DNA from: Chloroflexota bacterium
GTDB lineage: Bacteria; Chloroflexota; Anaerolineae; J036; Brachytrichaceae
Assembly (NCBI GenBank): GCA_031368515.1
Contig: JANMNW010000674.1
Coordinates: 3,969 to 67,968, forward strand
Direction: 5' to 3'
Length of the DNA: 64,000 nucleotides
Shown here: positions 6,313 to 39,642 of the stretch, piece after piece
Layout: each line of letters begins with the position of its first letter
Position numbering within the stretch: the stretch's first letter is position 1
Translations under genes and position numbers: made by a program
The notes under the pieces: model-generated
What the model saw: the letters and a program-made list of their open reading frames with translations, nothing else
The model's database searches: none
Told to the model about the DNA's origin: nothing

Positions 6313-8914
<2,602 letters not shown>

Positions 8915-8918
<4 letters not shown>

Positions 8919-9466: not shown

Positions 9467-9481
9467 TGTTGTGCTCCAGTG

Positions 9482-10795
9482 TCAAGCATGCTGCGATGAA
9501 AAAGCGGCGCGTTCCCGGCGATATAGCATCAGGTCCCAAACTAGCACCGCGCCAAACAGGCCGGCCATGAGGACGACCTGAATCAAAACAACGTCGCGCA
9601 GCGTGGCGTGAAACAGCCACAGCGCAGCGACTTGCGACACGCCGCCACAAATCGCAAACACACTGCCAAGTTTGTTGCCCGCCGAGAGCCGGTAGTTGAT
9701 GATCACATTGGCCAGCGCATAGAACGCCGTCGCCAGCGCATACAGCCACACCAGCGGCGCAACCGGCAGATAAGCGGCCCCAAACAGCAGCCGCACGATA
9801 AACTCCGGCGCGGCATAGGCCGCCACGACAATGGCCGCGCTGACCGCTCCCACCAGCCCCAATGAATTGACCAGCAGGTGATGATGACGCTCGCCGCGCG
9901 CATGGCGTTGCGCAACGATCGGAAAGAGCGTGGTCACCACCGACCAGGTGGCAAAAAACACGATGCGTCCGATCAGCGCCAGCGCCGCATACTGGCCGGC
10001 GTCTTCGGCCGCAAAGAAGTGTTTGACCATCAGCACATCGCTGTTGTTGATCAGGATCTGACCGACCAGCGCGCCGCCGGCCGCCAGCGCAAAGCGGCCG
10101 ACCGCTCGGCGCTCCTCGGCCGGCACCGTCGCCGTTTCGCCGACGCCGGGCCGCTCGGCGGGTGCGCGCGCGATGACCAGGGCGGCGGCCAGCGACACCA
10201 GCAGCGCCGCCACCACGCCGTTGACCTCCAGGCCAAGCGCAAGCAGCGCCACGGCGACGATCAGGCGCGACCACATTTCGGCCTGATAGCTGGCGGCCAG
10301 GCGGCCAAACCGCGTGCGGCCTTGCAGCGCGCCTCGATCGACGGAGACGGCCAAATAGACCGGAACGCCAAATCCAAGAACCGCCAACGGCAGCGCCGAT
10401 GCCAGATGGAAAAAGTCGCGCAACAGCGGCGACAGGCCGGCAAAAACCACCGCGAAGCCCAGCCCGGTCATCCAGGCCAGCCGCGAAAGCCAGCGCTTCA
10501 GCGCGGCTCCCTGCCCGCGCAGCATCGCGCTGCCCGCGCCGTCCGTCGCGTAATGGGTGGCGACAAACTTGGAGGTGACCATGATCAACGCCGCCGCCAC
10601 AAACGAAAACAGCAGCAACAGCGTGACCATCAGGCTGGCATCGGCAAACGCCGCTGGTCCAAGCCAGCGGCCCAGCACAATGTTGAAGGCATAGTTGCCG
10701 ACGTTGACCAGCGTGCTGCTGACAAACAGCAGCCCGCCGCCGCGCAGCAGCTCGCCGGGCGCCGGCAGCTTGCCGCGCCCTAGTGCCTTAAGCAT
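9482..10795 (-). CDS. Polytopic membrane protein, MOP/Wzx-type oligosaccharide flippase family
   Basis: 437 aa with about 12-14 hydrophobic helices. The N-terminal GGLLFVSSTLVNVGNYAFNIVLGRWLGPAAF resembles polysaccharide-biosynthesis (PST) flippases. Confidence 0.6.
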   Translation of the reverse strand: MLKALGRGKLPAPGELLRGGGLLFVSSTLVNVGNYAFNIVLGRWLGPAAFADASLMVTLLLLFSFVAAALIMVTSKFVATHYATDGAGSAMLRGQGAALKRWLSRLAWMTGLGFAVVFAGLSPLLRDFFHLASALPLAVLGFGVPVYLAVSVDRGALQGRTRFGRLAASYQAEMWSRLIVAVALLALGLEVNGVVAALLVSLAAALVIARAPAERPGVGETATVPAEERRAVGRFALAAGGALVGQILINNSDVLMVKHFFAAEDAGQYAALALIGRIVFFATWSVVTTLFPIVAQRHARGERHHHLLVNSLGLVGAVSAAIVVAAYAAPEFIVRLLFGAAYLPVAPLVWLYALATAFYALANVIINYRLSAGNKLGSVFAICGGVSQVAALWLFHATLRDVVLIQVVLMAGLFGAVLVWDLMLYRRERAAFSSQHA

Positions 10796-11145
10796 TGGTC
10801 GACCGCCTTTAGCAGTTCCTGCGTGCTCGACGGTTTGGTGAGAAAGGCGGTCGCGCCGGCGGCGCTGGCGCGCGCGCGGTCTTCGTCATAGTTGCTGGCG
10901 GTAAGCATGATCACCGGCAGGTATTTCGTGCTTGCATCGGCGCGCAGATGCTTGAGCAGCTCCACGCCGTCCACATCGGGCATGTCGATGTCACAGATGA
11001 CCAGATCGACCGACCGCTGCTCCAGCAGACTGATCGCGGCGGTTGCGCCGTCGGCCACGACTGTCTCGTGGCCGGCGGTGCGCAGTTGGGCCTGCAGCAC
11101 CCGTTGCGTGACAGAGTAATCGTCCACTGCGAGTATGCGTGCCAT
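10780..11145 (-). CDS. Single-domain response regulator (REC only)
   Basis: MARILAVDDYSVTQ..., DLVICDIDMPDVDG, VIMLTAS, FLTKP. ATG at 11145 lies within the longer ORF. Confidence 0.85.
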   Translation of the reverse strand: MARILAVDDYSVTQRVLQAQLRTAGHETVVADGATAAISLLEQRSVDLVICDIDMPDVDGVELLKHLRADASTKYLPVIMLTASNYDEDRARASAAGATAFLTKPSSTQELLKAVDQCLRH

Positions 11146-26017: not shown

Positions 26018-27889
26018 CTAGACCGCCACCACGCGCAATTCGATATCGGCCAGCGTCACGGCATCGCCTGGCTGCAGCGCAACCCGGGCATGCGCCGCCA
26101 GCCGCTCGCCATTCTTGCGTGTGCCATTCGACGAATTCAGATCGGTCACATGCAAGCCACCGGCCATGTCAAAGCGCGCGTGCGCGGCCGACAGAAAAGC
26201 GCTCGGCAACGTCACCGCATGCGCGCCGCACGGCGCGCGGCCGAGCACCAAGCCGTCGGCGCTGGCCGGAACCACGATGTCGCGGCCGGCTTGCGCACCG
26301 CTGGACACGCGCAGGCGCAGCCCGCCGCTTGCCACCTCGCCCGGCGCGGCAGCATTGATGAGATGCGTGCCTGACGCGCTGTGACCAAACTCAGCGGCCG
26401 GCGGCGCGACCACCGCGCGTACCAGCGTTTGCGCGTCGCCGCCGACTCGCGCGTGCCGCACACCAAATGCCGCATCTGCCGCAAGCGCATTGTGTGGCCT
26501 GGGCGGCGCATATGAGCGGCGCGCGCGAAGGGCAATGGCCGCGCCGCCAAGCAGCGTGACGACGGTCGTGGCAAGTCCGGCCACACCCGCAAGCGAGATC
26601 GAAACGCTGGGCGCCGGCGCAGCCTCGGCGCCAAGACCCGCCTGCGCCAGCGCGTGCGCAGCTGCAGTATCGGCGACGGCCAGCAACACTACGCGCTCGC
26701 CATACAACCGCATGTCTTGCACGCTGCCGTAGGCCCTGATCTTCAACGCTGTCGGCACGTTCGGGTCGAGCATGGCGGTGTCCAGCGTCAAGCTGAACGG
26801 CGGGCGCGCGGCCACTTCGGTGCGCGCGCCCAGCGTGTACTCTACGCGCTCGATATGCCGCCCCAGCACGCGCGGCGTCAAGCGAATTTGCTGCTCCATG
26901 GGCAGTGCCTGCGGGGCGACGGGTGCGCCTGCCGCCGCCAACTCCGGCCAATCGACAATCGGCGCAGCCGGCATGGGCACGAACGTCTGCGCAGCCTGCA
27001 GCGTGTCCATGCCCGCCCGCACGCGCACCACCGCCATGCGTTGGGTCAACGCCGGCGCCGCCCATGCGTCAAACCGCAGGCGGTAGCGCGCCCTCTGCCG
27101 CCAGGCGATCTGTGCGAAGGCGTGAGCGATGGCGTTCTTTGCGCCGGCGGCAATGTGCAGGCCACCGCTCGCCTGAGCCAGCCGATTGAGCGCGCGATGG
27201 TCCGCCGCGCCCACGCCAATGCTGATGATCGGCACGCCGTGAGCGCGTGCCAATGCAACGGCCTCGTCCAATGCGCACGCCGGTCCCAGCGCACTTCTTG
27301 CTGGCGCATCGCGGCCATCGCCAATTGCAATGATTACGCGCGCAATCTGCTTGCGCGAAGCCGACTTTTCGACTTCATCGCACAGCGCGTCGTAGAAGCG
27401 CGCGCGTGGGTCCGGGAGCAGCGCCTGAATAGCAGCGCGCGCTGATGCCGCGTCATTTTCAATCAGCGGTGACGCTGAGGGTGCATCGACTGACGCGCCC
27501 GCAACACGCCACAGCAAGGCGTCGCCCGGATCAATCGCGTCCAATGCCCTTGACGCGGCGTCGTTGAGCGCGCGCATCGAGCGCATCGGAACGCCAGGGT
27601 CAACGAGCACCGTCACATGCATGCGCACCGCCGGGTCGGCAAGCTTGCGCAGGCTCAACACGCGAGCGGGCGCGCCGGCGCTTTCGACGGTCACATCACC
27701 CGCCTGCACGTCATCAATCGGATCGCCGCGCCGATTGCGCAGCACCAGTTCGCACGACACCTCTGGATAGGCCGCGGCATCACACTTCTCCAGAACGGCT
27801 ATGGCGGAATCCAACGCGCGCGCAGGATTTGGCCTTTGCAGCGCACCGCACCCGAACGCGCACAAAAGCGCGGCCATCAGCAGGCGCAT
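26018..27889 (-). CDS. Signal peptide + extracytoplasmic vWA-like domain + TM helix + cytoplasmic FHA domain
   Basis: N-terminal MRLLMAALLCAFGCGAL. vWA-like blocks VTVLVDPGVPM (degenerate MIDAS), VIIAIGDGRDA, GVPIISIGVGAADHRALNRLAQASGG. TM helix LAGVAGLATTVVTLLGGAAIAL followed by RARR. C-terminal FHA: LVLGRAP..., SAAHARF, DLNSSNGTRKNGERL. Its start lies 1 nt after the upstream stop. Confidence 0.7.
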   Translation of the reverse strand: MRLLMAALLCAFGCGALQRPNPARALDSAIAVLEKCDAAAYPEVSCELVLRNRRGDPIDDVQAGDVTVESAGAPARVLSLRKLADPAVRMHVTVLVDPGVPMRSMRALNDAASRALDAIDPGDALLWRVAGASVDAPSASPLIENDAASARAAIQALLPDPRARFYDALCDEVEKSASRKQIARVIIAIGDGRDAPARSALGPACALDEAVALARAHGVPIISIGVGAADHRALNRLAQASGGLHIAAGAKNAIAHAFAQIAWRQRARYRLRFDAWAAPALTQRMAVVRVRAGMDTLQAAQTFVPMPAAPIVDWPELAAAGAPVAPQALPMEQQIRLTPRVLGRHIERVEYTLGARTEVAARPPFSLTLDTAMLDPNVPTALKIRAYGSVQDMRLYGERVVLLAVADTAAAHALAQAGLGAEAAPAPSVSISLAGVAGLATTVVTLLGGAAIALRARRSYAPPRPHNALAADAAFGVRHARVGGDAQTLVRAVVAPPAAEFGHSASGTHLINAAAPGEVASGGLRLRVSSGAQAGRDIVVPASADGLVLGRAPCGAHAVTLPSAFLSAAHARFDMAGGLHVTDLNSSNGTRKNGERLAAHARVALQPGDAVTLADIELRVVAV

Positions 27890-27890
27890 G

Positions 27891-29450
27891 TCAGATCACC
27901 ACCCGCAAGGCCGTCGATCCCAGCACCAGCTCGTCGCCAATATCCACCACACACGGCCCATCGATGCGTTGACCGCGCACCAGCACTCCATTGGCCGCGC
28001 GCGGCATCGGCCGCACGTGCCAGGCGTTGTCGGAAAAATGGAGCTCCGCATGCCAGCGCGAGATTTCGCGGTCGGCCGGGTTGAGCATGTCGCGGCCCAG
28101 CAGCATGGGCGAGCCCGTCACTGGCACGATGCGGCGCGCAGCAGCCACATGCAGCCGTATCGGCCGCAGCGCGTGTGGGGGCTTGTCCGCATCATGCGCT
28201 TGCGCGGCCAATCCATCCGCGCCCCGGACATCCGCGATGAGGCGCGCAAGTTCGCGCGCGCTGATCATGCGCCTGCGCGCATCCATGCCCAGCGCAAGAT
28301 GAATTGCCGCCCGCAGCTCGCGCGGCAGCGCCAGCCCGGCATCATCAAGAGCAACAGATTGGCCAGGCGCCGACCTCATTTGCGCATCATCGCATCCAAG
28401 CAACTGGCAGGCCAGGCTGGCGAATGCGCGCATGTCCGACGCCGCGCCGCCGCCGTCATCTGCCCGGGCCGCCGCGCCCGTTCGCGCCGCAAACAGCCGG
28501 GCCAGGCCCGCGTTGGCCAGTTGAATGTGATTGTCGGCGCCGATCAACACGTCGCCGGCTGTCAGCGCGCCATGCGCAAGCCCGGCGTCATGCAGCGCTG
28601 CCAACGCTTCCGATAGCTCATGCATGAGCCGCAAGGCTTCATGTTGCGGCGCCCGCTCGCGCATGCGGCCGGCCAGCGAGCCACCATGCGCAAAGGCTTC
28701 GATCAGATAAGGCGGTTCATGCGCGTCATCACCGCCATAGATCGGCGCCACAAGCGCATGCTTGAACGCCATCCCGGCGCGCAGATGCCGGGCAAAGCTG
28801 GCGCGCAACCCGTCCGGATCGCGGCGCAACAGCGTGTCGTTTAGAAATTTCACCGCAACCGCGCATCCCTCGCCCTCAGCGCAGCGCGCATCAGGCAGCC
28901 GCCCCGTCCGTAGCGCCGCCCGCCGCACCACGAAATGCTGGCCGACATGCACCACCTCGTCCAAATCGCACTGGCTGAGCCGAATCGGCTGTGAGCCCGC
29001 GCACGCAGCAGGCACGGCAGCGGCGCAATCGTTCGGCACAGCGCGTGGAATGGGCCACTCGCACCCAGCGCCAAGCACGGCATACACCGAACGCCCAATT
29101 TGGAATTGATCACCCGGCGCCAGCAATTCGTCGAAGACACGCCGGCCGTCGATCCAGGTGCCGTTGGCGCTGCCCAGATCGCGCAAGCGCAGTTCCGTCG
29201 CCGCGCGTTGCACCATCGCATGCTCGCGCGACGCATCCGGATCGGCGATGCGCGCCGGGCAGTGCGCCCCGCGGCCAATCAACAGCGCCTCGTCGCCAAT
29301 CCGGTAAAACGCGCCGTCGTTGGCGCCGGCCACACAAGCCAGCATCAAGCTCGGCTGGCGGCGGCGCTGCCGGCGGCGCAACAGCACCACCACGACCAAC
29401 ATAAGCAAAAGCGCCATGCACGGCGCGGCCCAAAACATCCACATTGGCAT
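27891..29450 (-). CDS. Membrane-anchored FHA - pseudokinase - FHA protein
   Basis: TM helix MWMFWAAPCMALLLMLVVVVLL + RRRQRRRQ. FHA1: LLIGRGAHC..SREHAMV..DLGSANGTWIDGRRV. The kinase-like core has VAVKFL, YLIEAFAHGGSL and LHDAGLAHGALTAGDVLI (HRD changed to HGA), then IQLANAGLA (DFG changed to NAG). FHA2: LLGRDM..SRWHAEL..ANGVLVRGQRI. The start is ATG 29450, or 29444 which has better SD spacing. Confidence 0.7.
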   Translation of the reverse strand: MPMWMFWAAPCMALLLMLVVVVLLRRRQRRRQPSLMLACVAGANDGAFYRIGDEALLIGRGAHCPARIADPDASREHAMVQRAATELRLRDLGSANGTWIDGRRVFDELLAPGDQFQIGRSVYAVLGAGCEWPIPRAVPNDCAAAVPAACAGSQPIRLSQCDLDEVVHVGQHFVVRRAALRTGRLPDARCAEGEGCAVAVKFLNDTLLRRDPDGLRASFARHLRAGMAFKHALVAPIYGGDDAHEPPYLIEAFAHGGSLAGRMRERAPQHEALRLMHELSEALAALHDAGLAHGALTAGDVLIGADNHIQLANAGLARLFAARTGAAARADDGGGAASDMRAFASLACQLLGCDDAQMRSAPGQSVALDDAGLALPRELRAAIHLALGMDARRRMISARELARLIADVRGADGLAAQAHDADKPPHALRPIRLHVAAARRIVPVTGSPMLLGRDMLNPADREISRWHAELHFSDNAWHVRPMPRAANGVLVRGQRIDGPCVVDIGDELVLGSTALRVVI

Positions 29451-29466
29451 CTCCCCACCGCTGCGC

Positions 29467-29781
29467 TCAGGCCCCGCCCCGCCGCAAGCGGTCTTCGATT
29501 TCCCGGCGCGCGCGCTCCTCGGCTTCCTGCACAATGTGGGCCGTATCTCGCAAAATTCCAGCAATGCGCGAAAGCATGCCTGGCAGCTGCGCAGAACGCG
29601 CGGCGCACGACTGCGCCTGCGCGCTGAATTCGTCGGAAGCGATGCCGTCCCAGGCCTCGAGTGCCTGTTGCGTGGCCTGCCCCGCCTGAGTCAGCACGTC
29701 GGTTTCGCCCGCTGCGCCTCGCTCAAACTCGCGGGCCACGGCGCGCATCTCGTCATAGTCGATTCCCAAAATAAAGGACAT
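29467..29781 (-). CDS. WXG100-family protein (paralogue 4)
   Basis: 104 aa helical hairpin. MSFILGIDYDEM N-terminus, central W-D-G, GGAG upstream of the ATG at 29781. Confidence 0.8.
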   Translation of the reverse strand: MSFILGIDYDEMRAVAREFERGAAGETDVLTQAGQATQQALEAWDGIASDEFSAQAQSCAARSAQLPGMLSRIAGILRDTAHIVQEAEERARREIEDRLRRGGA

Positions 29782-29805
29782 CTTTCGCTCCAACAGCCGG
29801 CGGGG

Positions 29806-30114
29806 TCACCCATCGGCCGAAATCGTGTGCGCAATCTCGGCGCGCGCCAGCGCCTCATGCTCTTCGACGATGCGCGCGGTTTCGCGCACATCGGTTGCCA
29901 GTTCGTCAAGCAGCGCCAGCGCGCGGCGCATGCGCGTGCGGCAGCTGAGGAGCTGCGCCATGAACTCCTGTTCCGCCACGCCATCCCAGCCTTCAAGCAA
30001 TTGCCGGTTGCGCGCATCGGCCCGGGCGAGGCAGCGCTTGATCACGCCGCCCTGCGCATCGAATGCTTGAGCCGTCGCCCGCAGCGCGTCGTATGGCGCC
30101 CGTATCGAGCTCAT
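29806..30114 (-). CDS. WXG100-family protein (paralogue 3)
   Basis: 102 aa with central LEGWDGVAEQEF. ATGA overlap with the stop of paralogue 2. Confidence 0.8.
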   Translation of the reverse strand: MSSIRAPYDALRATAQAFDAQGGVIKRCLARADARNRQLLEGWDGVAEQEFMAQLLSCRTRMRRALALLDELATDVRETARIVEEHEALARAEIAHTISADG

Positions 30115-30434
30115 GCTTCGCCTCCGGCAGTGTCATTGACCACGGCTGTCTCAATGGCGTCGCGCGCGCGCTGCTCCGCCAGGCGAATGGTGCGCGCCGT
30201 GATGTGCAGCGCAGTGCTGATCTGGTCAAGCACGAGCGGCACATGGCTCATGTCGCGCAGGCAGGCGGCGTAAGCCGGGTCAAATGCCGCGCGCGCCTTG
30301 CCCAGCCACAGCGGCGTCAGCTCGCCCACCGCTCGCTCAATGGCATGTATTGCCGCACGGGCTTCCTCTGCGCAACCGCCGATATCGAGCGCCACCGCCG
30401 TCATTTCGTCATAATTCAGGCGAATCTGGCCCAT
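30111..30434 (-). CDS. WXG100-family protein (paralogue 2)
   Basis: 107 aa. MGQIRLNYDEM, central W-L-G. AAGGAAGGA lies upstream of the ATG. Confidence 0.8.
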   Translation of the reverse strand: MGQIRLNYDEMTAVALDIGGCAEEARAAIHAIERAVGELTPLWLGKARAAFDPAYAACLRDMSHVPLVLDQISTALHITARTIRLAEQRARDAIETAVVNDTAGGEA

Positions 30435-30452
30435 CGAATCCTTCCTTGATCA

Positions 30453-30479
30453 ATGCGCGGCGCGGGTTGCCCCGCGCAT
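30453..30479 (-). promoter_or_regulatory. GC-rich stem-loop between WXG100 paralogues 1 and 2
   Basis: On the minus strand, GCGCGGG-GCAA-CCCGCGC (30460-30477) forms a 7-bp stem with a GNRA-type tetraloop. An alternative 8-bp stem is ATGCGCGG/CCGCGCAT (30453-60/30472-79). No U-tract follows. Confidence 0.5.
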
Positions 30480-30527
30480 CGAGCACCGTTCTAACAACTT
30501 GAAAAAATGAATTTGAGGGTTCGAACG

Positions 30528-30839
30528 CTAATTCGTGTCGTCCACGATCGCGCTGCCGATCTGCGCCCGCGCTTCTTCTTCAGCGCGCTGCACGAGGTCG
30601 GACGCTGTTTTGATGGCGGTGGAAATTTCGCTCATCATCAGCGGCGTGTGCTGCAGGCGCGCCATGCACGAATCGATCTGGGCGAGGAACTCGGTGTCCG
30701 CCACGCCCTCCCAACCCGCGCTCAGCTTGTCCGACTCGCCTTTCACGCGCTTAACCAGCTCGTCCGCCTGCTGCGACATCTGCATAAAGGTGTTCGAGCT
30801 CGCCGCCATCTCTTCATAGTTCATCTTGATTTGGCTCAT
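30528..30839 (-). CDS. WXG100-family protein (paralogue 1)
   Basis: 103 aa. MSQIKMNYEEM, central SAGWEGVADTEF. AAAGGAG lies upstream of the ATG at 30839. Confidence 0.85.
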   Translation of the reverse strand: MSQIKMNYEEMAASSNTFMQMSQQADELVKRVKGESDKLSAGWEGVADTEFLAQIDSCMARLQHTPLMMSEISTAIKTASDLVQRAEEEARAQIGSAIVDDTN

Positions 30840-30909
30840 GTCTGATTACTCCTTTGCGCCGGAGAGTGTTTGTCCGATCGCGCAGTTAGCATGACACAAA
30901 TCCGATGCG

Positions 30910-30945
30910 ATGAAGCTGACAGTTCCTGACAGTTCTGTCAGGTTC
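30910..30945 (-). promoter_or_regulatory. 36-bp operator-like element, copy 1 (upstream of the WXG100 operon)
   Basis: The plus strand reads ATGAAGCTGACAGTTCCTGACAGTTCTGTCAGGTTC. It matches 35985-36020 at 35 of 36 positions. It contains three 7-mers (CTGACAG, CTGACAG, CTGTCAG) starting at offsets 0, 10 and 19. Confidence 0.75.
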
Positions 30946-30955: not shown

Positions 30956-31582
30956 TCAGGCGAGCTTGAGCATGTAGCCCTTGCCGCGCACAGTCACGAT
31001 GAGGTCGCCCGCATCAGGGCTGATGCCGCGCAGCCGCAGCCGCAACCGGCTCAGCACTTGATCGAGCGCGTCGGAATCCATCAGGCCGTCGTAGTTGTGG
31101 CCCCATACCGCGCGGGCGCAATCGTGCCGCGCGCACACTTCACCGCGATGCTCAAACAAGTGCAGCAACAGGGCTTGTTGATCGCTGGACAAGTCGATTT
31201 TTTCGGCGTCCCAGAAAAAGCACCAGACTTTGAAATCGAAGCGCAAATGCGTGACCGGCTGCACAGTCTTGTCTTTGTCCAGATACACAATCAACCCGGT
31301 CGGATCGCCCAGGCCGATCTCGTCACCGTGCTTCAGCTTGTGGGGCGCACGCAACGGCCGGCCGTTGACAAATGTGCCATTCTGGCTTTGGCTGTCGCAC
31401 AAGACAAAGTAGTGACCATCCCAGGCAATGCGCGCATGCAGCCGTGATGTCAATGGACGCAGCACCACCATGGCGCAATCGCTCGCCCGGCCCAGCGTGC
31501 AGCCGCCGGCAGGCAGCACAATCATCTGCGGTGTGACTTCGGGAAAATTCGCCCGCAGTGCTTTGGTCGATGTCTTTGTCAT
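30956..31582 (-). CDS. FHA domain + OmpR/PhoB-type winged-helix DNA-binding domain transcriptional regulator
   Basis: FHA: CTLGRASDCAMVV..SRLHARI..DSQSQNGTFVNGRPL. C-terminal wHTH: LSSDQQALLLHLFEHRGEVCARHDCARAVWG...DALDQVLSRLRLRL...IVTVRGKGYMLK. ATG at 31582 lies within the longer ORF. Confidence 0.8.
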   Translation of the reverse strand: MTKTSTKALRANFPEVTPQMIVLPAGGCTLGRASDCAMVVLRPLTSRLHARIAWDGHYFVLCDSQSQNGTFVNGRPLRAPHKLKHGDEIGLGDPTGLIVYLDKDKTVQPVTHLRFDFKVWCFFWDAEKIDLSSDQQALLLHLFEHRGEVCARHDCARAVWGHNYDGLMDSDALDQVLSRLRLRLRGISPDAGDLIVTVRGKGYMLKLA

Positions 31583-31608: not shown

Positions 31609-34600
31609 TCATTGATTTTCCGGCGCTTTTAGCACAGCTTGCCCAATCGCGCTCAGCCAGTCGCCCCAGCCCCAGCCCTCCTCTTGCGGCACGGCAAATC
31701 GCGCGCGCAGCGGTTTGGACTGCCTGCGGCAGGTGTAGTAGCCGTGCCCGGCCGGCAACGGCTTGTCGCGTTCGCCCACGGGCAAGCGCAATCCAAAACC
31801 GACTGATTGCAGGCCGCCCAACACCACCCACGACTGCGCGTCCTTGATGCGTTTGAGCCAGCCGTCCAGCGCATCAAGCGCGCGATCAGGCCCGGCCATC
31901 AGCACATGAAAAGGCAAGCGTAAGCCGGCGCGTTCCAACAGGCCATCCAGCCGCTCTTTGGCCACGCGCGGCAATGCGCGGACAAAAGCGTCGGCGTCGT
32001 CAATCGCAAGCACCACCGCGGGCAGGCCGCGGGCTATCGTGGATGCGCTCCATTCCGGCGTCGCCGCGCGCGCGGCATGCTGCATCTCGCCCATGCTTTC
32101 CAGCGTGGCGGCAAGCTCATCAAGCAGCGCAGGAATTTCATCGCCATGCTGCGCACACTGGCGCACGTGCGGCAACCCGGACAGCGCGGCCAAGCCGTCG
32201 TCCGCGCCGCTGACATCGCACAGATACACCATCAGCTGGTCGGGATCGCGCGCACGCGCCAGCGACAGCAGCATGCTTTGCAGCACGGAGGTTTTTCCGC
32301 TTTGCGGCGCGCCGGTGACAAGCACGTGCGGGCTGGCGCCGATGTCAATCCGCAAAGGTTGTAAGTCCGCGGTCTGCAGCCCAACCGTGGCGACAAGCGG
32401 CTCGCCGGCACGTTCGCCGGACACACGCGCATGCGGCGCATCAGCCAGAAGCGCGCGCAAAGTCAACTCGGCCGGCATGGTCGCAATCGGCGGCGCGCGC
32501 CGCCCGGCGTATTGCGCGCGCAATGCGCCAGCCGCTTCGGCCAGTTGCGCCGCGCGCTCGGCATCGGTGGCGCCCGGCGCTGGCAGCGCCGCCTGGAATT
32601 CCAGCGGGCTCTGCCCCATCCGTTTGATCAGCCCGCGCCCGGGCGTCGCCGCCGGTTCCAGGCCGCCCGTCCGTCCAACCACTGCGGCATAGTCGGAGCG
32701 ATCCGCCAGTTGAAACGCAAGCGCGGCCGTGATATTGCCGCTCACGCGGCTGCGCACGTCAAGCGGTTTGTTGGCGCTGATCACCACATGCATCCCCAGC
32801 GGCGCGCCTTCGCGCACTACAGTGACCAGCGTATCTTCGTAGTCCATGCGGGCAAAAGCCGGATAGTTGTCGATGACCAGCAGGATCGCCGGCATGCCAG
32901 CCGCGGCGCCCAGATCGGCAAACTTGCGGCCGGCCAGCGCGTCTTTGCGCAAGGCCAATTCGCGCCGCAGCTGGCGAAACAGCCGCATCAGGCGTTCATC
33001 GTCGTCTTCAAACAGCACGGCGCCCACCTGCGGCAGCGCAGCCAACGCCGTCAGGCTGCGGCTGCCAAAGTCCAGCACGTAGGCATTTAGCTCGTCGGGC
33101 GAATGCGCACGCGCCAGCGCTAGCAACAGTGTTTGCAGCAAGGTTGATTTGCCTGCACCGGCCTGGCCGAACATCATCAGGTGCCCATCGCGGCCCAAAT
33201 CGATGATTGCCGCATCCTGCCGGCGCTCGCGCGGGTCGTCCATGCGGCCAATGACTGCGCGCAACCAGCCCGCAGTGTCGCCGGATGCGGCCGCCGATTC
33301 AAGCAGCAGCCGTTCGGGCAATGGATCGAGCCAGATGCGTTCGGCCGCTTGCACGTGTTCGGCGAGCGTTGTCCGGCGCACGTGGTCCATCAGCGCAGCC
33401 AACTGGCGCGGCTGTTCGCCGCCTGGCGGGCGCGGTTGCGTGATCCAGCAGCGCCGTTGCAGATCGGGCGTGCCATCGAGCAGCAGCGGCGCCACGTACC
33501 GTTGCGCCGCGTCCGGGTCTTCGTCCGGGTCGTAGCGCGCTCCGCCATACGCCGATTGAAATCGCTCATAGCGCTCATCGCTGCCCACCAGAAAGTATGC
33601 CTCTCCCGCGCGCGCAAGGTGAGCGGCATCGGGGCGTTTGAGCATTTCCTTGCTGTCACTTTCGTCCTGCACGCGCAGGCACAGCTTGAAGCGGCTGTTC
33701 GACCAGATCTGGTCGTCTACAACGCCAGACGGTTTTTGAGTGGCAAGGATCAGATGCACGCCCAGGCTGCGGCCGATTCGCGCGGCGCTGATCAGCTGCT
33801 TCATAAAGTCGGGCTGGTCGCGTTTCAGCTCGGCAAACTCATCCACGATGATCACCAGACGCGGCATGGCCTTGAAGCGATCGGCGCCGCCTGCCGCATA
33901 TAGGCGCTGATAGTCGTCGATATAGGTCACGCTGTGCTGATCAAAGATGCGTTGACGCCGCTTGAGCTCGCTGGCCAGCGCGATAAGCGCGCGGCGCGCG
34001 GCGCTGGGCTCAACGAGGTTGGTAATCACGCCGCTCAAATGCGGCAGGTCGATATCCGGCACGGGCGACACCGTGCGCGCGGCCGAACGCTGGCGCAGAA
34101 ACGCATTGGCCATGCCGCCGCCTTTGTAGTCAATCAACAAAAATGAAATCCACTCCGGGCTGAAGCGCACCGCCAGCGAAGCGATCAGGGTCTGCAACAA
34201 CTCGCTTTTGCCCGCGCCGGTTGTGCCGGCGACCAACCCATGCGCGCCATGGCCGCGATCTCCATCGCGCAAATCCAGCTGCAGCAATCGTCCACCCGCC
34301 GCGCGGCCGATCGGCACGACAAGCGAGCCTGCGTCCAAATGCGCATGCGTGCGCCACAGCCCGGCGACATCCACATCCTCCACGTGGCGGGCATCCCACA
34401 GTGAAAGCAGCGTCACGGCCGCAGGAATTTCAGCGGGTGCGGCGGTGCGGCGCAGCCGGATGGCTGACAGCGAGCGCGCCAACGCCTCGCACTCCAGCCC
34501 CGGCAGCGCGTCTACGCTGTCGAGCTGTCGCGGGCGGCCGTTGTCGGTCGCCGCAAACAGACGCGCGCGGCCGGCTTCATAGTGGACATAGGCGTCGCAC

Positions 34601-35946
34601 TCGCGCGGCAACAGATGCCGGTGGTCCGCCAGAAACACCGCGGTAAACCCTGCGCCGCGCGCCAGCGCAAGCAACTGCGGCAGCGCAGCATCTTGGCCAA
34701 ACAGGCCGGGCTCCGCCAGAAAGAAAAGGGTATGGCGCGGAAGCTGTTCAGCCCGCGCCTTGCGATGCGCGGCCAGCAAGACGGCGTCAAGCGCGCGTTT
34801 GGCGCCGTCGGGGTCGCACGCCAGCAGGCGATGGCGGTGTTCGGCATCCCACGCATGCGGCAACCAGCGCATCCAGCGCCACGCATCGCCCTCAGTTTCC
34901 GGGAAAACCGCGGCGAGTGCGAGATCGTCCGGGCTGTGATGCGCGGCCAGCTGCGCCGCCAGCGCGAAACAGGCGCGCAGCAGCGCGGCGCGCGGGCCGG
35001 CCAGCCCCAGCGCGCGCAACTGGCCGACCGGCACGCACAGCGGCACGCGCTCGATCGCGGCAAACGCGTCCGCCAGTTCAAGCATGCGGTCGCCCAGCGC
35101 ATCGGGCGCCAACAACGGCTCGTAGCGCGCAGTCTTGATCGTGAAGCGGGCGGGCGCGCGCCCAAGACCGATACGCGCCTGCAAGTAATCGGGGTCGCCC
35201 GGTTCGCGCATCCACACGCGCGCGCATTGCCGCACGCGGCCGCGCAGAGTGTGCAAGTCCGGGTCCTCGTCCAGCGCTTCGATTCGCAGGCGATTGACTT
35301 GCGCCGCCAGCTGCGCGCGACGTTGCTCCAGATATGAGTCGTAACGCGCGGCGCGTTCAGCCATATCGCGGGCATGGCGGCGCCGTTCGCTGACATAGGA
35401 CCACAGGCCTGTCAGCGCGGACGCGCCCATGAATCCGGTGGTGAGAAAGTTCATCGGACCGTTGGCATGCGGCAAGCTCACCGTTGCGGCCAGAGATGCG
35501 ACGGCAAACGCCGCCGGCATTACGATGCCCGGCCATTGCAGGCGCGGCGCGCTTGGCGCGTTGGGCGGCGCGGTCAGTTCGATCTCACCCCCTTCCAATT
35601 GAAAAAATGGACGCGGCGGGCGCTGGAAGAATGGCTGCGGCTTGGCGGGCAAAACGGCGGGCGAGCGGTCGCTGTGTTGCGGCCGCTCGGATACGCAGAC
35701 CAGATGCACCTGCGCGCCATCCCAAACACCAGCGTGATCCAGACTGTCCTCTGCCCGCAGCGGCACGCGCGCGTCGCATTGCTCGGCATGCGAGATGATC
35801 CAGTGTTGGCCGGCAGGGCATCGCCAGTCCAGCGCGCTGGCGATGGCCGGCGCAAGGTCATAGGCTGGCACATCAGCGGGCGCGCGCACGTCTTCGGGCG
35901 GCCAGCCTGCGGCATTGGCTGTAACAAACACCTGTCGCATCGTCAT
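31609..35946 (-). CDS. EssC/EccC-like FtsK/SpoIIIE-family type VII secretion ATPase with N-terminal YukD-like ubiquitin fold
   Basis: N-terminal ~85 aa resemble YukD/EsaB (QHWIIS..., SLDHAGVWDGAQVHLV). Two TM helices (WPGIVMPAAFAVASLAATVSL, MNFLTTGFMGASALTGLWSYV). Three P-loops: GTTGAGKSE, GQAGAGKST, GAPQSGKTS. Walker B motifs: VIIVDEFAEL, LLVIDNYPAF, VLAIDDADAF. The start is 35946 or 35940, not 35979 (see findings). Confidence 0.9.
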   Translation of the reverse strand: MTMRQVFVTANAAGWPPEDVRAPADVPAYDLAPAIASALDWRCPAGQHWIISHAEQCDARVPLRAEDSLDHAGVWDGAQVHLVCVSERPQHSDRSPAVLPAKPQPFFQRPPRPFFQLEGGEIELTAPPNAPSAPRLQWPGIVMPAAFAVASLAATVSLPHANGPMNFLTTGFMGASALTGLWSYVSERRRHARDMAERAARYDSYLEQRRAQLAAQVNRLRIEALDEDPDLHTLRGRVRQCARVWMREPGDPDYLQARIGLGRAPARFTIKTARYEPLLAPDALGDRMLELADAFAAIERVPLCVPVGQLRALGLAGPRAALLRACFALAAQLAAHHSPDDLALAAVFPETEGDAWRWMRWLPHAWDAEHRHRLLACDPDGAKRALDAVLLAAHRKARAEQLPRHTLFFLAEPGLFGQDAALPQLLALARGAGFTAVFLADHRHLLPRECDAYVHYEAGRARLFAATDNGRPRQLDSVDALPGLECEALARSLSAIRLRRTAAPAEIPAAVTLLSLWDARHVEDVDVAGLWRTHAHLDAGSLVVPIGRAAGGRLLQLDLRDGDRGHGAHGLVAGTTGAGKSELLQTLIASLAVRFSPEWISFLLIDYKGGGMANAFLRQRSAARTVSPVPDIDLPHLSGVITNLVEPSAARRALIALASELKRRQRIFDQHSVTYIDDYQRLYAAGGADRFKAMPRLVIIVDEFAELKRDQPDFMKQLISAARIGRSLGVHLILATQKPSGVVDDQIWSNSRFKLCLRVQDESDSKEMLKRPDAAHLARAGEAYFLVGSDERYERFQSAYGGARYDPDEDPDAAQRYVAPLLLDGTPDLQRRCWITQPRPPGGEQPRQLAALMDHVRRTTLAEHVQAAERIWLDPLPERLLLESAAASGDTAGWLRAVIGRMDDPRERRQDAAIIDLGRDGHLMMFGQAGAGKSTLLQTLLLALARAHSPDELNAYVLDFGSRSLTALAALPQVGAVLFEDDDERLMRLFRQLRRELALRKDALAGRKFADLGAAAGMPAILLVIDNYPAFARMDYEDTLVTVVREGAPLGMHVVISANKPLDVRSRVSGNITAALAFQLADRSDYAAVVGRTGGLEPAATPGRGLIKRMGQSPLEFQAALPAPGATDAERAAQLAEAAGALRAQYAGRRAPPIATMPAELTLRALLADAPHARVSGERAGEPLVATVGLQTADLQPLRIDIGASPHVLVTGAPQSGKTSVLQSMLLSLARARDPDQLMVYLCDVSGADDGLAALSGLPHVRQCAQHGDEIPALLDELAATLESMGEMQHAARAATPEWSASTIARGLPAVVLAIDDADAFVRALPRVAKERLDGLLERAGLRLPFHVLMAGPDRALDALDGWLKRIKDAQSWVVLGGLQSVGFGLRLPVGERDKPLPAGHGYYTCRRQSKPLRARFAVPQEEGWGWGDWLSAIGQAVLKAPENQ

Positions 35947-35984
35947 TTCCAGGAACGGCGATAGTGTGCGACAAAGCATGCAGA

Positions 35985-36020
35985 ATGAAGCTGACAGTTG
36001 CTGACAGTTCTGTCAGGTTC
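35985..36020 (-). promoter_or_regulatory. 36-bp operator-like element, copy 2 (upstream of essC-like gene, in the divergent region with the kinase)
   Basis: The plus strand reads ATGAAGCTGACAGTTGCTGACAGTTCTGTCAGGTTC, one mismatch from copy 1. Confidence 0.75.
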
Positions 36021-36081: not shown

Positions 36082-36145
36082 CCGGAGAAAACTTTAAGAG
36101 TTTTCATCTCTTAAAGAGATGAAAACTCTTAAAGTTTTCTCCCGG
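36082..36145. repeat. AT-rich 64-nt near-perfect palindrome with nested GAAAAC-N7-GTTTTC sites
   Basis: GGAGAAAACTTTAAGAGTTTTCATCTCTT (36084-36112) | A (36113) | AAGAGATGAAAACTCTTAAAGTTTTCTCC (36114-36142) forms 29 perfect base pairs. The outer CC/GG pair follows after a 1-nt bulge. Each arm contains GAAAAC-N7-GTTTTC (36087-36105 and 36121-36139). Confidence 0.85.
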
Positions 36146-36188: not shown

Positions 36189-38201
36189 ATGGGCACGTCC
36201 CAGGCTTGTCAAGGGGTTGTTGTGGCGTTTGATCTGATTGGAAAAACGCTCGGCCCATACCGCATTGACGCATTGCTCGGCGCTGGCGGCATGGCCGAGG
36301 TGTACAAAGCCTTTCAACCGAGCATGGACCGCATTGTCGCGCTCAAAGCGCTCCCGGCCGCGCTCAGCGCACAGCCGGAGTTTCGCGAGCGCTTTCGCCG
36401 CGAAGCAAAGCTGATCGCCCAGCTCAAGCACACGCACATTCTGCCGGTGTATGACTTCGGCGAAGCCGAAGGCCACGCCTACCTGGTCATGCCGCTGATG
36501 GAAAACGGCACGATCGCTTCGCGCGTGCGCGGCCGCCGCCTCCCGCTCGAAGACATCGTGCGCGTCGGCACGCAAATCGGCGACGCGCTCGATTACGCGC
36601 ACGAAAAAGGCATGGTGCATCGCGATGTCAAACCAGGCAACATCCTGCTCGACACGCGCGGCAATTGCCTGCTCAGCGACTTTGGCATCGCGCGGATGAC
36701 GGTCGACACGCTCACGCCGGATCAATCGCGCATGGGCACGCCTGCCTACATGTCGCCCGAACAAGCCGAAGGCGACAACATCGACGGCCGCTCCGATGTT
36801 TATTCGCTGGGCGTGGTGCTCTATGAACTGGCCACTGGGCGACGACCGTTTGACTCGTCCGACCCCAATGTGCTGATGTATCAGCACGCACACAATACGC
36901 CGCCTGCCCCGCGCAGCATCGATCCCACCCTTCCCGAGCAGCTGGAATGGGTCATCCTGCATGCGATGGCCAAACGCCCGGCCGACCGCTTCATCAATGG
37001 CGCTGAGCTTGGCCGGGCGCTGCGCCCGCTGATTATCAGCGAGCGCAGCGGTCCCGATGCCGCACGCCCGCGCATCGCCCCGGATTTGCCGGTCGCCAGC
37101 AAAGTTGCCGGGCCTGTGGCCTCGGATGCCGCAACTGCGCCGCGCCCCAACGCCGAAGCCCCGCCGCCCGCGCGGAATGCGCCGCTCAATACCGCGCTGC
37201 TGCCCGCAGGCGTGGCGCGCCCGGGTGCCGCGCGCCCGGCTTTCCAACCGGCGCCCTTCGCGCCACCGGCGCCGGCCAAAGCGCGTTGGCGCCTCCCCAG
37301 ATTCAGACGGATTTTCGCCATCGGACAGAGCGCACGGCCGTCGCCGGCAAGCTACGGATATGGCGGCGCGCACGAACGGTCCAGGCCGCTGTTCAACACG
37401 CTTTTTGCCGGGCTGGCCGGCGCGATTATTCTGGTGCTGCTGGCCAGCGCGGTCAGCAACTTCTTGCGCAGCATCAACGAGCAGGCTGCGGCCATCGCGC
37501 CGCCCACCGCCACCTATGCGGCTTTCGCCACAGCGTTGGCTGATGCGACAGAAACGCCGGCGCCGGCTGAGACTCCTGCGCAAGTGACAGTCGCCGCCGC
37601 AGCCGATGCCCCGGCTGTTGCAGTGACAATCGCGCCCGCGCAAGTCACCGAAACGCCTTTGAGCGCGCGGCCGCTTGCCGAGCCGGCGGCCTGCGCGCGC
37701 GCCAGCGCGCTGACGCTCGACCCCGGCCAGCTCCAGGGCGTCGGATGTCCATCGCAGGCATTGGTGCCGGCGCGGCGCGTGATGGTGCAGACATTCGAAC
37801 GCGGCATCATGGTGCTGTTTCTGCGCAACAACAGCGCGTTGAACGGCGGGGTCATCTACGCGCTCGCAAGCGATGGCCACGCCTGGCGCATCAGCGACAC
37901 CTGGGCCAGCGCTTCACGCAATCGCGACACTTGGTACTCGTGCCGCGCGGCGCCCGGGCAATCGCCCGCGCAATCCGGTGTGCCATGGCGCGGATTTGGG
38001 CGGGCATGGTGCAACGACCAGGCGCTGGCCTCTGCTTTGGGTGCGGCCGTCACGGAAGAATCGGATGCGCGAGCGGCTTTCCAGGCGCATGCCAACGGGC
38101 GCGTCTTTCGGCTGGACAACTGGCCCGGCGCGCCTGGCTTTGCGCCGGAGCGCATCTATGCCGTGGCCATGCTCGACAATCGCTCCGAGCAGTGGCGCTG
38201 A
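36189..38201 (+). CDS. Receptor-type Hanks Ser/Thr protein kinase (kinase, Pro/Ala-rich linker, TM helix, Cys-containing ectodomain)
   Basis: LGAGGMAEVYKA, VALK, HRDVKPGNILL, SDFGIA, GTPAYMSPEQ. TM helix LFAGLAGAIILVLLASAVSNFL. The ~230-aa C-terminal domain has 4 Cys. Confidence 0.9.
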   Translation: MGTSQACQGVVVAFDLIGKTLGPYRIDALLGAGGMAEVYKAFQPSMDRIVALKALPAALSAQPEFRERFRREAKLIAQLKHTHILPVYDFGEAEGHAYLVMPLMENGTIASRVRGRRLPLEDIVRVGTQIGDALDYAHEKGMVHRDVKPGNILLDTRGNCLLSDFGIARMTVDTLTPDQSRMGTPAYMSPEQAEGDNIDGRSDVYSLGVVLYELATGRRPFDSSDPNVLMYQHAHNTPPAPRSIDPTLPEQLEWVILHAMAKRPADRFINGAELGRALRPLIISERSGPDAARPRIAPDLPVASKVAGPVASDAATAPRPNAEAPPPARNAPLNTALLPAGVARPGAARPAFQPAPFAPPAPAKARWRLPRFRRIFAIGQSARPSPASYGYGGAHERSRPLFNTLFAGLAGAIILVLLASAVSNFLRSINEQAAAIAPPTATYAAFATALADATETPAPAETPAQVTVAAAADAPAVAVTIAPAQVTETPLSARPLAEPAACARASALTLDPGQLQGVGCPSQALVPARRVMVQTFERGIMVLFLRNNSALNGGVIYALASDGHAWRISDTWASASRNRDTWYSCRAAPGQSPAQSGVPWRGFGRAWCNDQALASALGAAVTEESDARAAFQAHANGRVFRLDNWPGAPGFAPERIYAVAMLDNRSEQWR

Positions 38202-38202
38202 A

Positions 38203-39642
38203 CTAGCGCCACAGGTCGAGCTGCGGCGGCGCGGTATCCGGAAACCAGCGCGCATAGATCTCGGCGTAGCTGCCATCGGCGATCATTTGCTGCAACGCAA
38301 GATTGACCGCGTCGCGCAGCGGCGATTGTCGCTGGGGCAGACCGATGGCCACAGTCGTGTCGCCGGCGCGATAGATCGGTGTTGAAAAATCGATCACCCG
38401 GTCAAGCGTCTGTGTGCGCGGCAGCCCGCCGATCACCAGATCGGCCGTCCCGGCGGCAAAAACTTGTGCCGCATCGCCAGCCAGCGGCAAAAACTCAACC
38501 GACTCCGCCGAACCCATCACGCGTGCGCCGATGGCGCGAGACAGCTCCACCTCAAACCCGCCCGGCAAATTGTTCTCTTCAAGCCGGGAAAAAGGCGGAT
38601 TGCTGGCAAAGGCCACGCGCAAACGATTGGCCGCGCGAGCTTGGGCCAAACGATCAACCGATTGCAGCGCGTCAGGCAGCTGCGCAAGCTGCAAGTCGAT
38701 CGGCCCCAGCAGGGGCGCCAGCGCCGAAGGATCGGGCGGCGCGCCAAACCATTGTTGATACAGGCGCGCATACGTGCCGTCCAACATCATGTTGCTCAGC
38801 GTGATGTTGACCAGGTCCGCCCACTCGGAATCGCCTGGCGGCAGCACAATGGCCACCGGTTCGCGCTTGAAGACGCTCAGGACAAACAGCGCGGGGTCCT
38901 GCGCCGCGCGCGTGCGCAAGCGGCGCCAGCGCCCGGCCATGCCATCCACATCGCCGTTGGCCAGCAGGCCGTATGCCTCGGCATAGGTGCTGGCCGCCTT
39001 GGTCGTCACTGTGACGCCATTGACGTTTTGCGCATCGCGCAGTGCAAAGGTGCTCGCGTCGTCAACGTAGACGATCGGCCGCCCGGCCAGCGACACAAAA
39101 TCCGAGAACGTCCCGGTGCGCACTAGCAACGCATCGCCGTCCTGCAGGTAGGGCATGCTGAAATCCGCTTCAAGCTCGGCGGCGCGGCTCTGCACAATGC
39201 CGCCCATGGCCAGATCGACCTCTCGCGCGCGCACTTTGCCCGGCGCCGAATTGCTGGTGACCTGAACAAACTCAACATTGCGATCGCTGCCCAGCCAGCG
39301 CCGCGCAAACTGCCGCGCCAAATCCACGTCAAAGCCTTCGAGCTCGCCACGGTCGTTTACCCGCGACAGCGGCGGGGCATCAAAGCGAATGCCGACGCGA
39401 ATGCGGCTGCGCAGCTTGACCAGCGCCGCGGTTGAATAATCCGGCGGCGGCGGCGTCACCGAGGCTTCGATCGTCACCGGGTCGGCCGTGGCCACCACGC
39501 GCGCAATCGAATCGACATTGACGTAGCGCTGCACGGTGTCCAGCGAAAGCGAGCTGCACGCGGTCATAGCCAGCGTCAGCAACGCCGCCAGCGCGCGCCG
39601 CGCCGCGCCGATGCCTGTAGCTTTGCCCACGGTCTCACTCAC
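38203..39642 (-). CDS. Lipoprotein with two tandem family-3 (amino-acid type) solute-binding domains
   Basis: Lipobox LTLAMTACSS. Two repeats of the SBP_bac_3-like pattern: IRVGIRFDAPPLS...GFDVDLAR and LRVAFASNPPFS...GFEVELSR. Confidence 0.8.
   Translation of the reverse strand: MSETVGKATGIGAARRALAALLTLAMTACSSLSLDTVQRYVNVDSIARVVATADPVTIEASVTPPPPDYSTAALVKLRSRIRVGIRFDAPPLSRVNDRGELEGFDVDLARQFARRWLGSDRNVEFVQVTSNSAPGKVRAREVDLAMGGIVQSRAAELEADFSMPYLQDGDALLVRTGTFSDFVSLAGRPIVYVDDASTFALRDAQNVNGVTVTTKAASTYAEAYGLLANGDVDGMAGRWRRLRTRAAQDPALFVLSVFKREPVAIVLPPGDSEWADLVNITLSNMMLDGTYARLYQQWFGAPPDPSALAPLLGPIDLQLAQLPDALQSVDRLAQARAANRLRVAFASNPPFSRLEENNLPGGFEVELSRAIGARVMGSAESVEFLPLAGDAAQVFAAGTADLVIGGLPRTQTLDRVIDFSTPIYRAGDTTVAIGLPQRQSPLRDAVNLALQQMIADGSYAEIYARWFPDTAPPQLDLWR

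Follow-up and report, generated by a model that had tools for sequence, protein, structure and literature searches.

A conserved array of phased heptamers at the type VII-like secretion promoters of Chloroflexi and a locus-encoded FHA-winged-helix protein as its predicted regulator

The locus described here raises the question of why two secretion operons are preceded by almost the same 36-bp array of heptamers, which protein reads this array, and with what effect. In the window (the whole 64-kb stretch of DNA that was analyzed), the first of these operons opens with an essC-like secretion ATPase gene (31609–35946, minus strand). Its product combines a weak N-terminal YukD-like domain with three FtsK/SpoIIIE P-loop domains and matches Pfam FtsK_SpoIIIE at 224 bits in three stretches and NCBIfam TIGR03928 (T7_EssCb_Firm) at 956 bits against a cut-off of 778; a search for EssC homologs returned four close matches amid many P-loop ATPase candidates. 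The gene of a 208-aa regulator (30956–31582, minus strand), in which Pfam recognizes an FHA and a Trans_reg_C domain and which we propose as the binder of the array, starts 26 nt past the essC stop codon with a ribosome-binding site GGGGAG. Lying so close behind essC and lacking an array of its own, this FHA-wHTH gene is probably co-transcribed with essC and autoregulated. The second operon contains four WXG100 genes (29467–30839, minus strand), located at 30528–30839, 30111–30434, 29806–30114, and 29467–29793 and scoring 51.4, 37.4, 39.4, and 28.8 bits with Pfam, respectively; the first of them also reaches 52.7 with TIGR03930, for which the cut-off is 44.85. Downstream of the WXG100 genes, two accessory genes recognized with Pfam (26018–29564, minus strand) encode a membrane FHA-pseudokinase-FHA protein (27891–29564) and a vWA-FHA protein (26018–27889). 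The pseudokinase domain is degenerate in translation, with AHGAL where HRD would be expected and NAG in place of DFG. A Ser/Thr protein kinase gene (36189–38201, plus strand; Pfam Pkinase, 164 bits) diverges from essC and has retained both catalytic motifs, HRDVKPGN and DFG. The presence of an EssC-type FtsK/SpoIIIE ATPase and WXG100 substrates in one locus assigns the system to the EssC/T7SSb type. The other Firmicutes core genes, esaA, essA, and essB, were not found by Pfam, and the membrane FHA-pseudokinase-FHA protein may be a stand-in for EssB.

The element itself, ATGAAGCTGACAGTTCCTGACAGTTCTGTCAGGTTC, is a 36-mer at 30910–30945 (copy 1, before the WXG100 operon), and a second copy with one C/G difference lies at 35985–36020 (copy 2, before essC), the two being identical at 35 of 36 positions, spacers included. 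Read in the direction of the genes concerned, all of which are on the minus strand, the sequence is GAAC-CTGACAG-AA-CTGTCAG-SAA-CTGTCAG-CTTCAT, where S is G in copy 1 and C in copy 2. Its three heptamers, here called rep1, rep2, and rep3, occupy 30935–30941, 30926–30932, and 30916–30922 in copy 1 and 36010–36016, 36001–36007, and 35991–35997 in copy 2 (plus-strand coordinates, minus-strand features), with starts 9 and 10 nt apart. Each CTGWCAG heptamer is itself a palindrome, CTG-W-CAG, so that whether two heptamers count as inverted or direct is set only by whether the central base is A or T. Copy 1 starts 10 nt past the regulator stop codon (30956–30958). Between its end and the A of the first WXG100 ATG (30839) lie 70 nt, which puts this A 71 nt from the final base of copy 1. 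Copy 2 is located 38 nt upstream of the likeliest essC ATG (35946), within the intergenic DNA that separates essC from the divergent kinase gene (36189, plus strand). When both strands of the 64 kb were scanned for the 36-mer at up to three mismatches, two matches were obtained, compared with 0.00 in 100 dinucleotide-preserving shuffles. At up to two mismatches, CTGACAGNNCTGTCAG and CTGTCAGNNNCTGTCAG matched both copies in the window, plus one two-mismatch site at 23131, and neither mismatch-tolerant nor weight-matrix scans of the 64-kb window detected a third copy of the array. A preliminary description of this DNA had reported a single recurrence of the 36-mer with one C/G difference and no further copy in the 64 kb, heptamers starting 9–10 nt apart, and a copy 1 placed 71 nt before the WXG100 ATG and 10 nt after the regulator stop; the mismatch scan and the coordinates agree with it on every one of these points. 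Its view of the heptamers as one inverted pair plus one direct repeat is correct as to layout and is refined here by the palindromic nature of CTG-W-CAG, in which the central base alone gives the orientation.

The specificity of the array was assessed with a weight matrix built from the orthologous loci, from which the sites of the window and of L001 had been left out. This matrix scored the window copies at 38.4 bits (copy 1) and 37.1 bits (copy 2), and the next best score over 128,000 positions was 8.7. In all syntenic loci, matches of at least 15 bits were located only at essC and WXG100 promoters. Additionally, a search of 525 kb of unselected control loci for TGTCAG-N4-TGTCAG at up to one mismatch gave a match in one locus, which is approximately the chance rate. 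Given the specificity of the matrix and control-locus scans, the array does not qualify as a repeat densely dispersed through the DNA examined, and its restriction to secretion promoters applies to the stretches over which it was assessed, 64 kb from this genome and about 125 kb from relatives. A search for CTGTCAGNNNCTGTCAGSTTC over 185,579 representative genomes, a collection evidently without the source lineage, yielded 37 single matches where chance alone predicts about 35, and not one of these 37 lies near T7SS genes or homologs of the locus proteins.

The set used for comparison comprised the window and 10 further syntenic loci (11 in all), with regulator identities of 56–95%. The further loci, L001, L002–4, L005/6, L007, L008, L009, L128, L130, L131, and L132, share the gene order kinase, essC, regulator, four WXG100 genes, FHA-pseudokinase, and vWA-FHA, and homologs of the regulator are annotated as Chloroflexi. 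The accessory gene pair is syntenic in L001, L002, L005, L007, L128, and L130, and the kinase gene is divergent from essC in every locus that extends that far. Wherever a locus extends over the intergenic region concerned, the array is present there, always in the orientation of the downstream gene. Its position before WXG100 gene 1, corresponding to copy 1, is kept in L001, L002, L005/6, L007, L008, L128, L130, L131, and L132, and its position before essC, corresponding to copy 2, in L001, L002, L007, L008, L009, and L130. Four loci (L005/L006, L007, and L130) carry a third array before WXG100 gene 2, which is absent from the window; array sites in the syntenic loci are found before essC, before WXG100 gene 1, and, in these four, before WXG100 gene 2 only. 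Looking upstream of WXG100 and essC genes in relatives, as the preliminary description had proposed, therefore recovered the array at the same promoters in 11 syntenic loci. The two-promoter regulon that it had postulated is an accurate account of the 64-kb window, with its two copies, but not of the four relatives with a third array, which indicates that regulon size differs between lineages.

To delimit the footprint of the array, 20 non-redundant sites, taken from the window and the 10 further syntenic loci, were aligned without gaps. Information content is approximately 0–0.4 bits per column upstream of the array and 1–2 bits over AAC-CTGACAG-NN-CTGTCAG-NNA-CTGTCAG-STTCA. The stretch that separates the array from a -10-like block has a constant length of 14 nt and a variable sequence (approximately 0.1–0.6 bits), followed by the C, A, C, and T columns of TGnCAYnCT at 1.7–2.0 bits and by background beyond. 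The invariant core of the 20 sites is a CTGTCAG-N3-CTGTCAG direct repeat with a 10-bp period, followed by (C/G)TTCA. The first heptamer, rep1, is less uniform: most sites have it inverted, L009 has it direct, the essC site of L008 lacks it, and the spacer between it and rep2 is 2 or 3 nt. As its orientation, presence, and spacing vary while the rep2–rep3 spacing is invariant, rep1 appears to be auxiliary. The idea that rep1 and rep2 together make a palindromic site for a dimer was rejected on account of the same 2–3-nt spacer and of the L009 and L008 essC sites. An inverted first heptamer with a spacer of 2 or 3 nt is also unusual for a purely head-to-tail OmpR-family array. These comparisons of sequence provide strong support for the array as a conserved cis-regulatory site specific to T7SS promoters, and its natural variants in 11 lineages offer ready-made mutants.

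The geometry of the two promoters is informative about the probable mode of action. At the WXG100 promoter, an extended -10-like block, TGT-CATGCT, occupies 30888–30896 on the minus strand, its hexamer CATGCT (30888–30893) starting 22 nt after rep3. Transcription is predicted to start near 30881–30882, which would leave a 5' leader of about 42 nt with a predicted Shine-Dalgarno sequence AAAGGAG. The essC promoter has a -10-like block TCG-CACACT at 35963–35971 on the minus strand (hexamer CACACT, 35963–35968), with a predicted start near 35956–35957, from which at most about 10 nt of leader would precede the ATG (35946). With its arrangement TGn + CAYNCT and a hexamer whose A (position 2) and T (position 6) never vary, the TGnCAYnCT block looks like an extended -10 element. 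The assignment of the -10 is unorthodox in one respect, as position 1 of the hexamer is C and not T. In five independent gene calls, the ATG comes exactly 6 nt after the hexamer (essC in L130 at 158, in L009 at 5709, and in L008 at 5697; WXG100 gene 2 in L130 at 5870 and in L006 at 5156), which suggests that leaderless mRNAs are made from these promoters and would place the array at approximately -60 to -35. Within it, rep3 would lie at about -41 to -35, rep2 at about -51 to -45, and rep1 at about -60 to -54. A consensus scan found no sigma-70 -35/-10 pair at the WXG100 promoter, and dependence on an activator would fit this lack. For OmpR/PhoB/SARP-type activators, the classic layout is one of phased sites ending at the -35 position where the promoter itself has no -35 element. 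The term operator, used in the preliminary description, is thus apt insofar as it denotes a conserved cis-regulatory site at both promoters; in its repressor sense it suits the element less well, since the position from -60 to -35 and the missing -35 look more like those of an activator site.

The candidate binder is encoded in the locus. The regulator matches Pfam FHA at 64.7 bits (cut-off 20.7) and Trans_reg_C at 52.8 bits (cut-off 26.2), the FHA domain (residues 33–97) preceding Trans_reg_C (residues 132–210), and Pfam detects no receiver domain. The pThr-binding pattern GR...SR.H...NGT is conserved, with G36, R37, S51, R52, H54, N73, G74, and T75 (numbered in a 213-aa version) invariant in 22 homologs, as in an FHA domain that reads pThr. 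The nearest solved structures of the wHTH are the DNA-binding domains of WalR/VicR/YycF, together with other OmpR-family domains. The sites of WalR/VicR/YycF are TGTWAH direct repeats, and TGTnA half-sites are common among OmpR-family proteins. The array has the tandem organization of an OmpR/PhoB-family winged-helix site, namely half-site direct repeats with a 10-bp period and a third heptamer 9–10 bp upstream, and the correspondence between array phasing and an OmpR/PhoB-type winged helix proposed at the outset is upheld by these repeats and by the Trans_reg_C domain of the regulator. Furthermore, the regulator is the only DNA-binding protein of the conserved locus, and its gene always lies between the two arrays. 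A PhoB sequence used as the query matched two receiver domains in the window (~10786–11139 and 6375–6734) and no other OmpR-type output domain; both matches align only to PhoB residues 4–121 and therefore include no output domain of this type. As the evidence for binding is one of association, the pairing of regulator and site rests on co-localization and family-typical geometry.

More distant FHA-wHTH homologs, with identities of 34–49%, are not located beside EssC/WXG100 genes and are without the array, and several of them adjoin a Ser/Thr kinase gene. A metagenome scan seeded by the regulator alignment picked up generic FHA motifs, and its homologs, all with identities of 49% or less, were used as negative controls and to trace the link to a neighboring kinase gene. 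In L053 and L054, the recognition helix differs from that of the T7SS-clade regulator, and the kinase and regulator genes, which diverge, are separated by a different phased array with 4–5 copies of CGGATCACAAA every 11 bp; this second case speaks for the pairing of regulator with array. The L133/L134 loci, from a third and more distant Anaerolineae clade, have no 10–11-bp phased repeats and contain a 27-bp variable tandem repeat instead, so that phased repeats beside an FHA-wHTH gene are no family-wide rule. Co-variation of recognition helix and motif within the T7SS clade was considered and rejected. Four regulators (P0003, P0006, P0008, and P0013) have Ala in QxASRLR, and the heptamers are more degenerate in L002 and L008, the subclade with this Ala; as this substitution represents one evolutionary event, at a residue that is probably buried, it is not counted as evidence.

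On this basis, we assign a probability of roughly 65% to the reading in which the array is a composite tandem site of the FHA-wHTH protein, which would activate both secretion promoters under phospho-control. In this mechanism, three CTGWCAG heptamers would follow one another at roughly one per helical turn and span approximately -60 to -35 at each of two promoters. From one promoter, essC and the regulator gene would be transcribed, and from the other the four WXG100 genes and the genes of the downstream FHA proteins. OmpR/PhoB-type winged helices would be arranged head-to-tail on the direct repeats, beside an extended -10 lacking a usable -35, and the bound FHA-wHTH protein would recruit RNA polymerase and thereby activate transcription. 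The divergent Ser/Thr kinase would serve as the upstream signal source for the FHA domain of the regulator. Given that the pThr pocket is intact and the divergent kinase active, occupancy of the array is probably under threonine-phosphorylation control, and the phosphorylated protein may be either the regulator itself or a partner that drives its oligomerization. Since the essC operon includes the regulator gene, the circuit would be subject to positive autoregulation, with machine and substrates switched on together. The identity of the binder, activation over repression, and phospho-control are the parts of this scheme that we infer.

Other explanations of the array deserve consideration. 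The array may be real but bound by another factor, such as a PhoB/OmpR-family response regulator encoded elsewhere that recognizes it as a Pho-box-like site, in which case secretion would be tied to phosphate or envelope stress and the FHA-wHTH protein would act elsewhere. The Pho-box half-site of E. coli is CTGTCAT with a period of 11 bp, and the CTGTCAG half-site is only one base away from it, yet the array has a period of 10 bp. Similarly, TGTnA half-sites are widespread among OmpR-family proteins and the window does encode the two receiver-domain proteins mentioned above (~10786–11139 and 6375–6734), but these matches show no OmpR-type output domain. The targets, moreover, are secretion genes, no pst or pho genes were seen in the syntenic loci, and the FHA-wHTH gene accompanies the array in every syntenic locus, where it lies between the arrays. 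Binding by such an outside regulator is consequently considered unlikely. A true operator, to which the FHA-wHTH protein would bind as a repressor until released by kinase signaling, appears improbable to a similar degree. The whole array is upstream of the -35 position, the promoters have a conserved extended -10-like block and no -35 match, and three phased sites that end at -35 are typical of activators; repression would nevertheless be conceivable because rep3 abuts the -35 position, from which a bound protein could occlude RNA polymerase. A precedent also exists in EspM, an FHA and HTH protein encoded beside ESX-1, which is described as repressing whiB6 (PMC7002343).

The least probable explanation, already largely refuted by the sequence comparison, is that the similarity is a functionless by-product. 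It would then reflect recent local duplication or gene conversion, a MITE end or other trace of a mobile element, or a hairpin or attenuator in the read-through RNA. The identity of 35/36 positions, spacers included, does exceed functional need, and long palindromic MITE-like inserts adjoin the array in several loci; however, these neighboring palindromes are unrelated between loci, whereas the array is constant, and it is kept in 11 loci, at a fixed distance from the -10-like block, though the flanks have diverged to approximately 0 bits. Pairing of rep1 with rep2 or rep3 could in principle form a hairpin. An RNA element was rejected, as the array folds no better than shuffles (z of -0.9 to -1.7) and different heptamers are paired in different loci; in L009, where all heptamers are direct, no hairpin is possible, and no Rfam match was obtained at the array. 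An ECF-type promoter (GGAAC ... CGTC) was likewise rejected, because the spacer triplet is unconserved and reads GAA, CAA, GCA, CAT, TGA, GTT, or CTA.

Activation of both promoters by the FHA-wHTH protein, the reading that we prefer, can be extended to a more tentative proposal that we consider somewhat doubtful. The kinase, the FHA-wHTH protein, and the phased array may constitute a self-contained Chloroflexi module that employs pThr in place of Asp phosphorylation and acts as a positive-feedback T7SS switch and that, with other repeats such as CGGATCACAAA in L053/L054, controls other targets. In such a module, an OmpR-type winged helix would oligomerize on the three heptamers in a pThr-dependent manner and thereby produce the positive-feedback switch for secretion machine and substrates, and an uncharacterized regulator family with predictable operators would come into view. 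Nothing was found in the searchable literature on the regulation of type VII-like secretion in Chloroflexi, or on two-domain FHA + OmpR-type regulators. The array is a well-supported operator-like motif with a predicted regulator and has no earlier description in the literature searched. It offers the study of T7SS regulation in Chloroflexi a start, in the form of a 35-bp site, a predicted binder, a kinase, a promoter geometry, and predicted transcription starts. As a winged helix on phased repeats at -35 is a textbook mechanism, these results are of value for annotation and for their testability and do not introduce a new principle.

Among known systems, the Pho box of PhoB, the WalR site TGTWAH-N5-TGTWAH, and the OmpR sites F1–F3/C1–C3 are also composed of TGTnA-type half-sites of 6–7 bp in direct repeats at about every helical turn. 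Sites of the PhoB/OmpR type adjoin or replace the -35 while the -10 is kept, and they are bound head-to-tail by a Trans_reg_C winged helix, as the array would be by its candidate binder. In contrast to the Pho box and the OmpR sites, the array has a 10-bp period and three heptamers, the first usually inverted with a 2–3-nt spacer; it ends at -35, whereas Pho-type sites reach to about -22, and its proposed binder possesses an FHA domain and no Asp-phosphorylated receiver domain. The regulator scores 30.7 bits with TIGR02154 (PhoB), for which the cut-off is 296, and it is far below every NCBIfam response-regulator cut-off. With this score and the 10-bp period, the array is no Pho box. EmbR/PknH of Mycobacterium tuberculosis likewise combines an OmpR-type winged helix and an FHA domain under Ser/Thr kinase control, and SARPs bind heptamer direct repeats phased by the helical turn beside the -10 or -35 and activate transcription. 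In EmbR/SARP proteins, an N-terminal OmpR-type wHTH is followed by a BTAD, with a C-terminal FHA domain in EmbR, whereas Pfam places the FHA domain of the present regulator at the N-terminus and the wHTH at the C-terminus and finds no BTAD. The regulator is thus neither an EmbR nor a SARP; no PDB match to EmbR was obtained at E ≤ 0.01, and the targets also differ, being arabinosyltransferase or antibiotic clusters for EmbR/SARP and secretion genes here.

For the arrangement of regulator and locus, the nearest biological analog appears to be EspM (Rv3863 / MMAR_5438) at ESX-1. EspM carries an FHA domain at its N-terminus and a DNA-binding domain at its C-terminus, is encoded beside ESX-1, binds an intergenic region of the ESX-1 locus, and tunes the expression of secretion genes, its FHA domain being proposed to control oligomerization (PMC7002343, PMC11005418). 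Compared by description, EspM is longer, at about 360 aa, its C-terminal half is termed a helix-turn-helix, and it is a repressor of whiB6; the passages of these two papers considered here describe no binding motif for it. The system of the window is EssC/T7SSb-like and belongs to a phylum other than that of the mycobacterial EspM/ESX-1. As far as these passages go, the parallel with EspM hints that a coupling of FHA/pThr signaling to T7SS transcription may recur across phyla.

A third full copy of the array of CTGWCAG heptamers, placed before the second WXG100 gene, was identified in four of the syntenic Chloroflexi T7SS-like loci (L005 at 11192, L006 at 5105, L007 at 11179, and L130 at 5819), where it is followed by the -10-like block of the other array promoters and by a leaderless ATG. 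No array precedes the second WXG100 gene in the window, and the number of regulated promoters therefore varies by lineage. Across the syntenic loci, the start codon was called at a distance of exactly 6 nt 3' of the conserved CAYNCT hexamer of the -10-like block in five cases (L130 at 158 and 5870, L009 at 5709, L008 at 5697, and L006 at 5156). Because this distance recurs in five gene calls, the sequences suggest that the mRNAs of essC and the second WXG100 gene are leaderless in the Chloroflexi represented by L130, L009, L008, and L006. The essC start of the window and of its syntenic counterpart L001 lies 10–17 nt past the hexamer.

L005 is situated on a 178-kb contig. Fragments of both its kinase gene and its essC are interspersed there with unrelated ORFs (4573–9984), and no essC array was found in this locus. 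L006 encodes a regulator identical to that of L005 and carries an intact essC. Either the locus is in decay in L005 or its split genes are an artefact of assembly or of a frameshift.

Palindromic sequences adjoin several of the arrays. In the window, an AT-rich perfect palindrome with arms of 29 + 29 nt and a 1-nt centre (36084–36142) lies between array copy 2 and the promoter of the kinase gene; it occurs once within the 64 kb. An Rfam search of this palindrome returned only miRNA-hairpin matches, all below threshold. Since one arm of its counterpart in L001 carries three uncompensated changes, the palindrome has the appearance of a MITE-like insertion in decay and not of a hairpin under selection. 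Long inserts, palindromic or built as inverted repeats, are also found directly 5' of the array in L002 (~5290–5400 and ~10640–10780, at both array promoters), L130 (5160–5280), L128 (3190–3430), and L009 (10650–10740), and they display no sequence kinship between loci. They could have arisen as separate MITE insertions at an intergenic site that tolerates them; alternatively, they could serve as terminators or insulators that precede the promoter.

Repeats of other kinds accompany distant FHA-wHTH genes. In L053 (752–800) and L054 (5451–5500), whose FHA-wHTH paralogues are 35–37% identical, four to five tandem copies of the 11-bp unit CGGATCACAAA occupy the intergenic stretch that separates the regulator gene from a divergently transcribed Ser/Thr kinase gene. 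These arrays may represent a second operator type of the FHA-wHTH family. A tandem repeat of ~27 bp, beginning GCGTAGGACGGGCTTTTCAGCCTGTC, lies 5' of a 31%-identical FHA-wHTH gene in L133 (~4895–4950) and L134 (~4750–4900); with two copies in one genome versus five in the other, its copy number is variable.

Convergent with the Ser/Thr kinase gene of the window, a minus-strand gene (38203–39642) has a product that contains two SBP_bac_3 solute-binding domains and could provide ligand input to the kinase; its synteny is maintained in L001, L002, L005, L007, L008, and L009. Farther along, the G+C content falls from ~0.63 to ~0.55 at ~46000 and remains so through to 64000, which may mark a compositional boundary.

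Within the secretion locus, a minus-strand gene (27891–29564) encodes a membrane protein in which a kinase-like domain is flanked by FHA domains on both sides. Its catalytic motifs are degenerate, with AHGAL replacing HRD and NAG replacing DFG, and the protein is therefore likely a pseudokinase. The membrane protein may be a functional counterpart of EssB of the Firmicutes T7SSb, which adopts a pseudokinase fold. The N-terminus of the window EssC is weakly YukD-like, whereas Firmicutes EssC carries twin FHA domains at this position.
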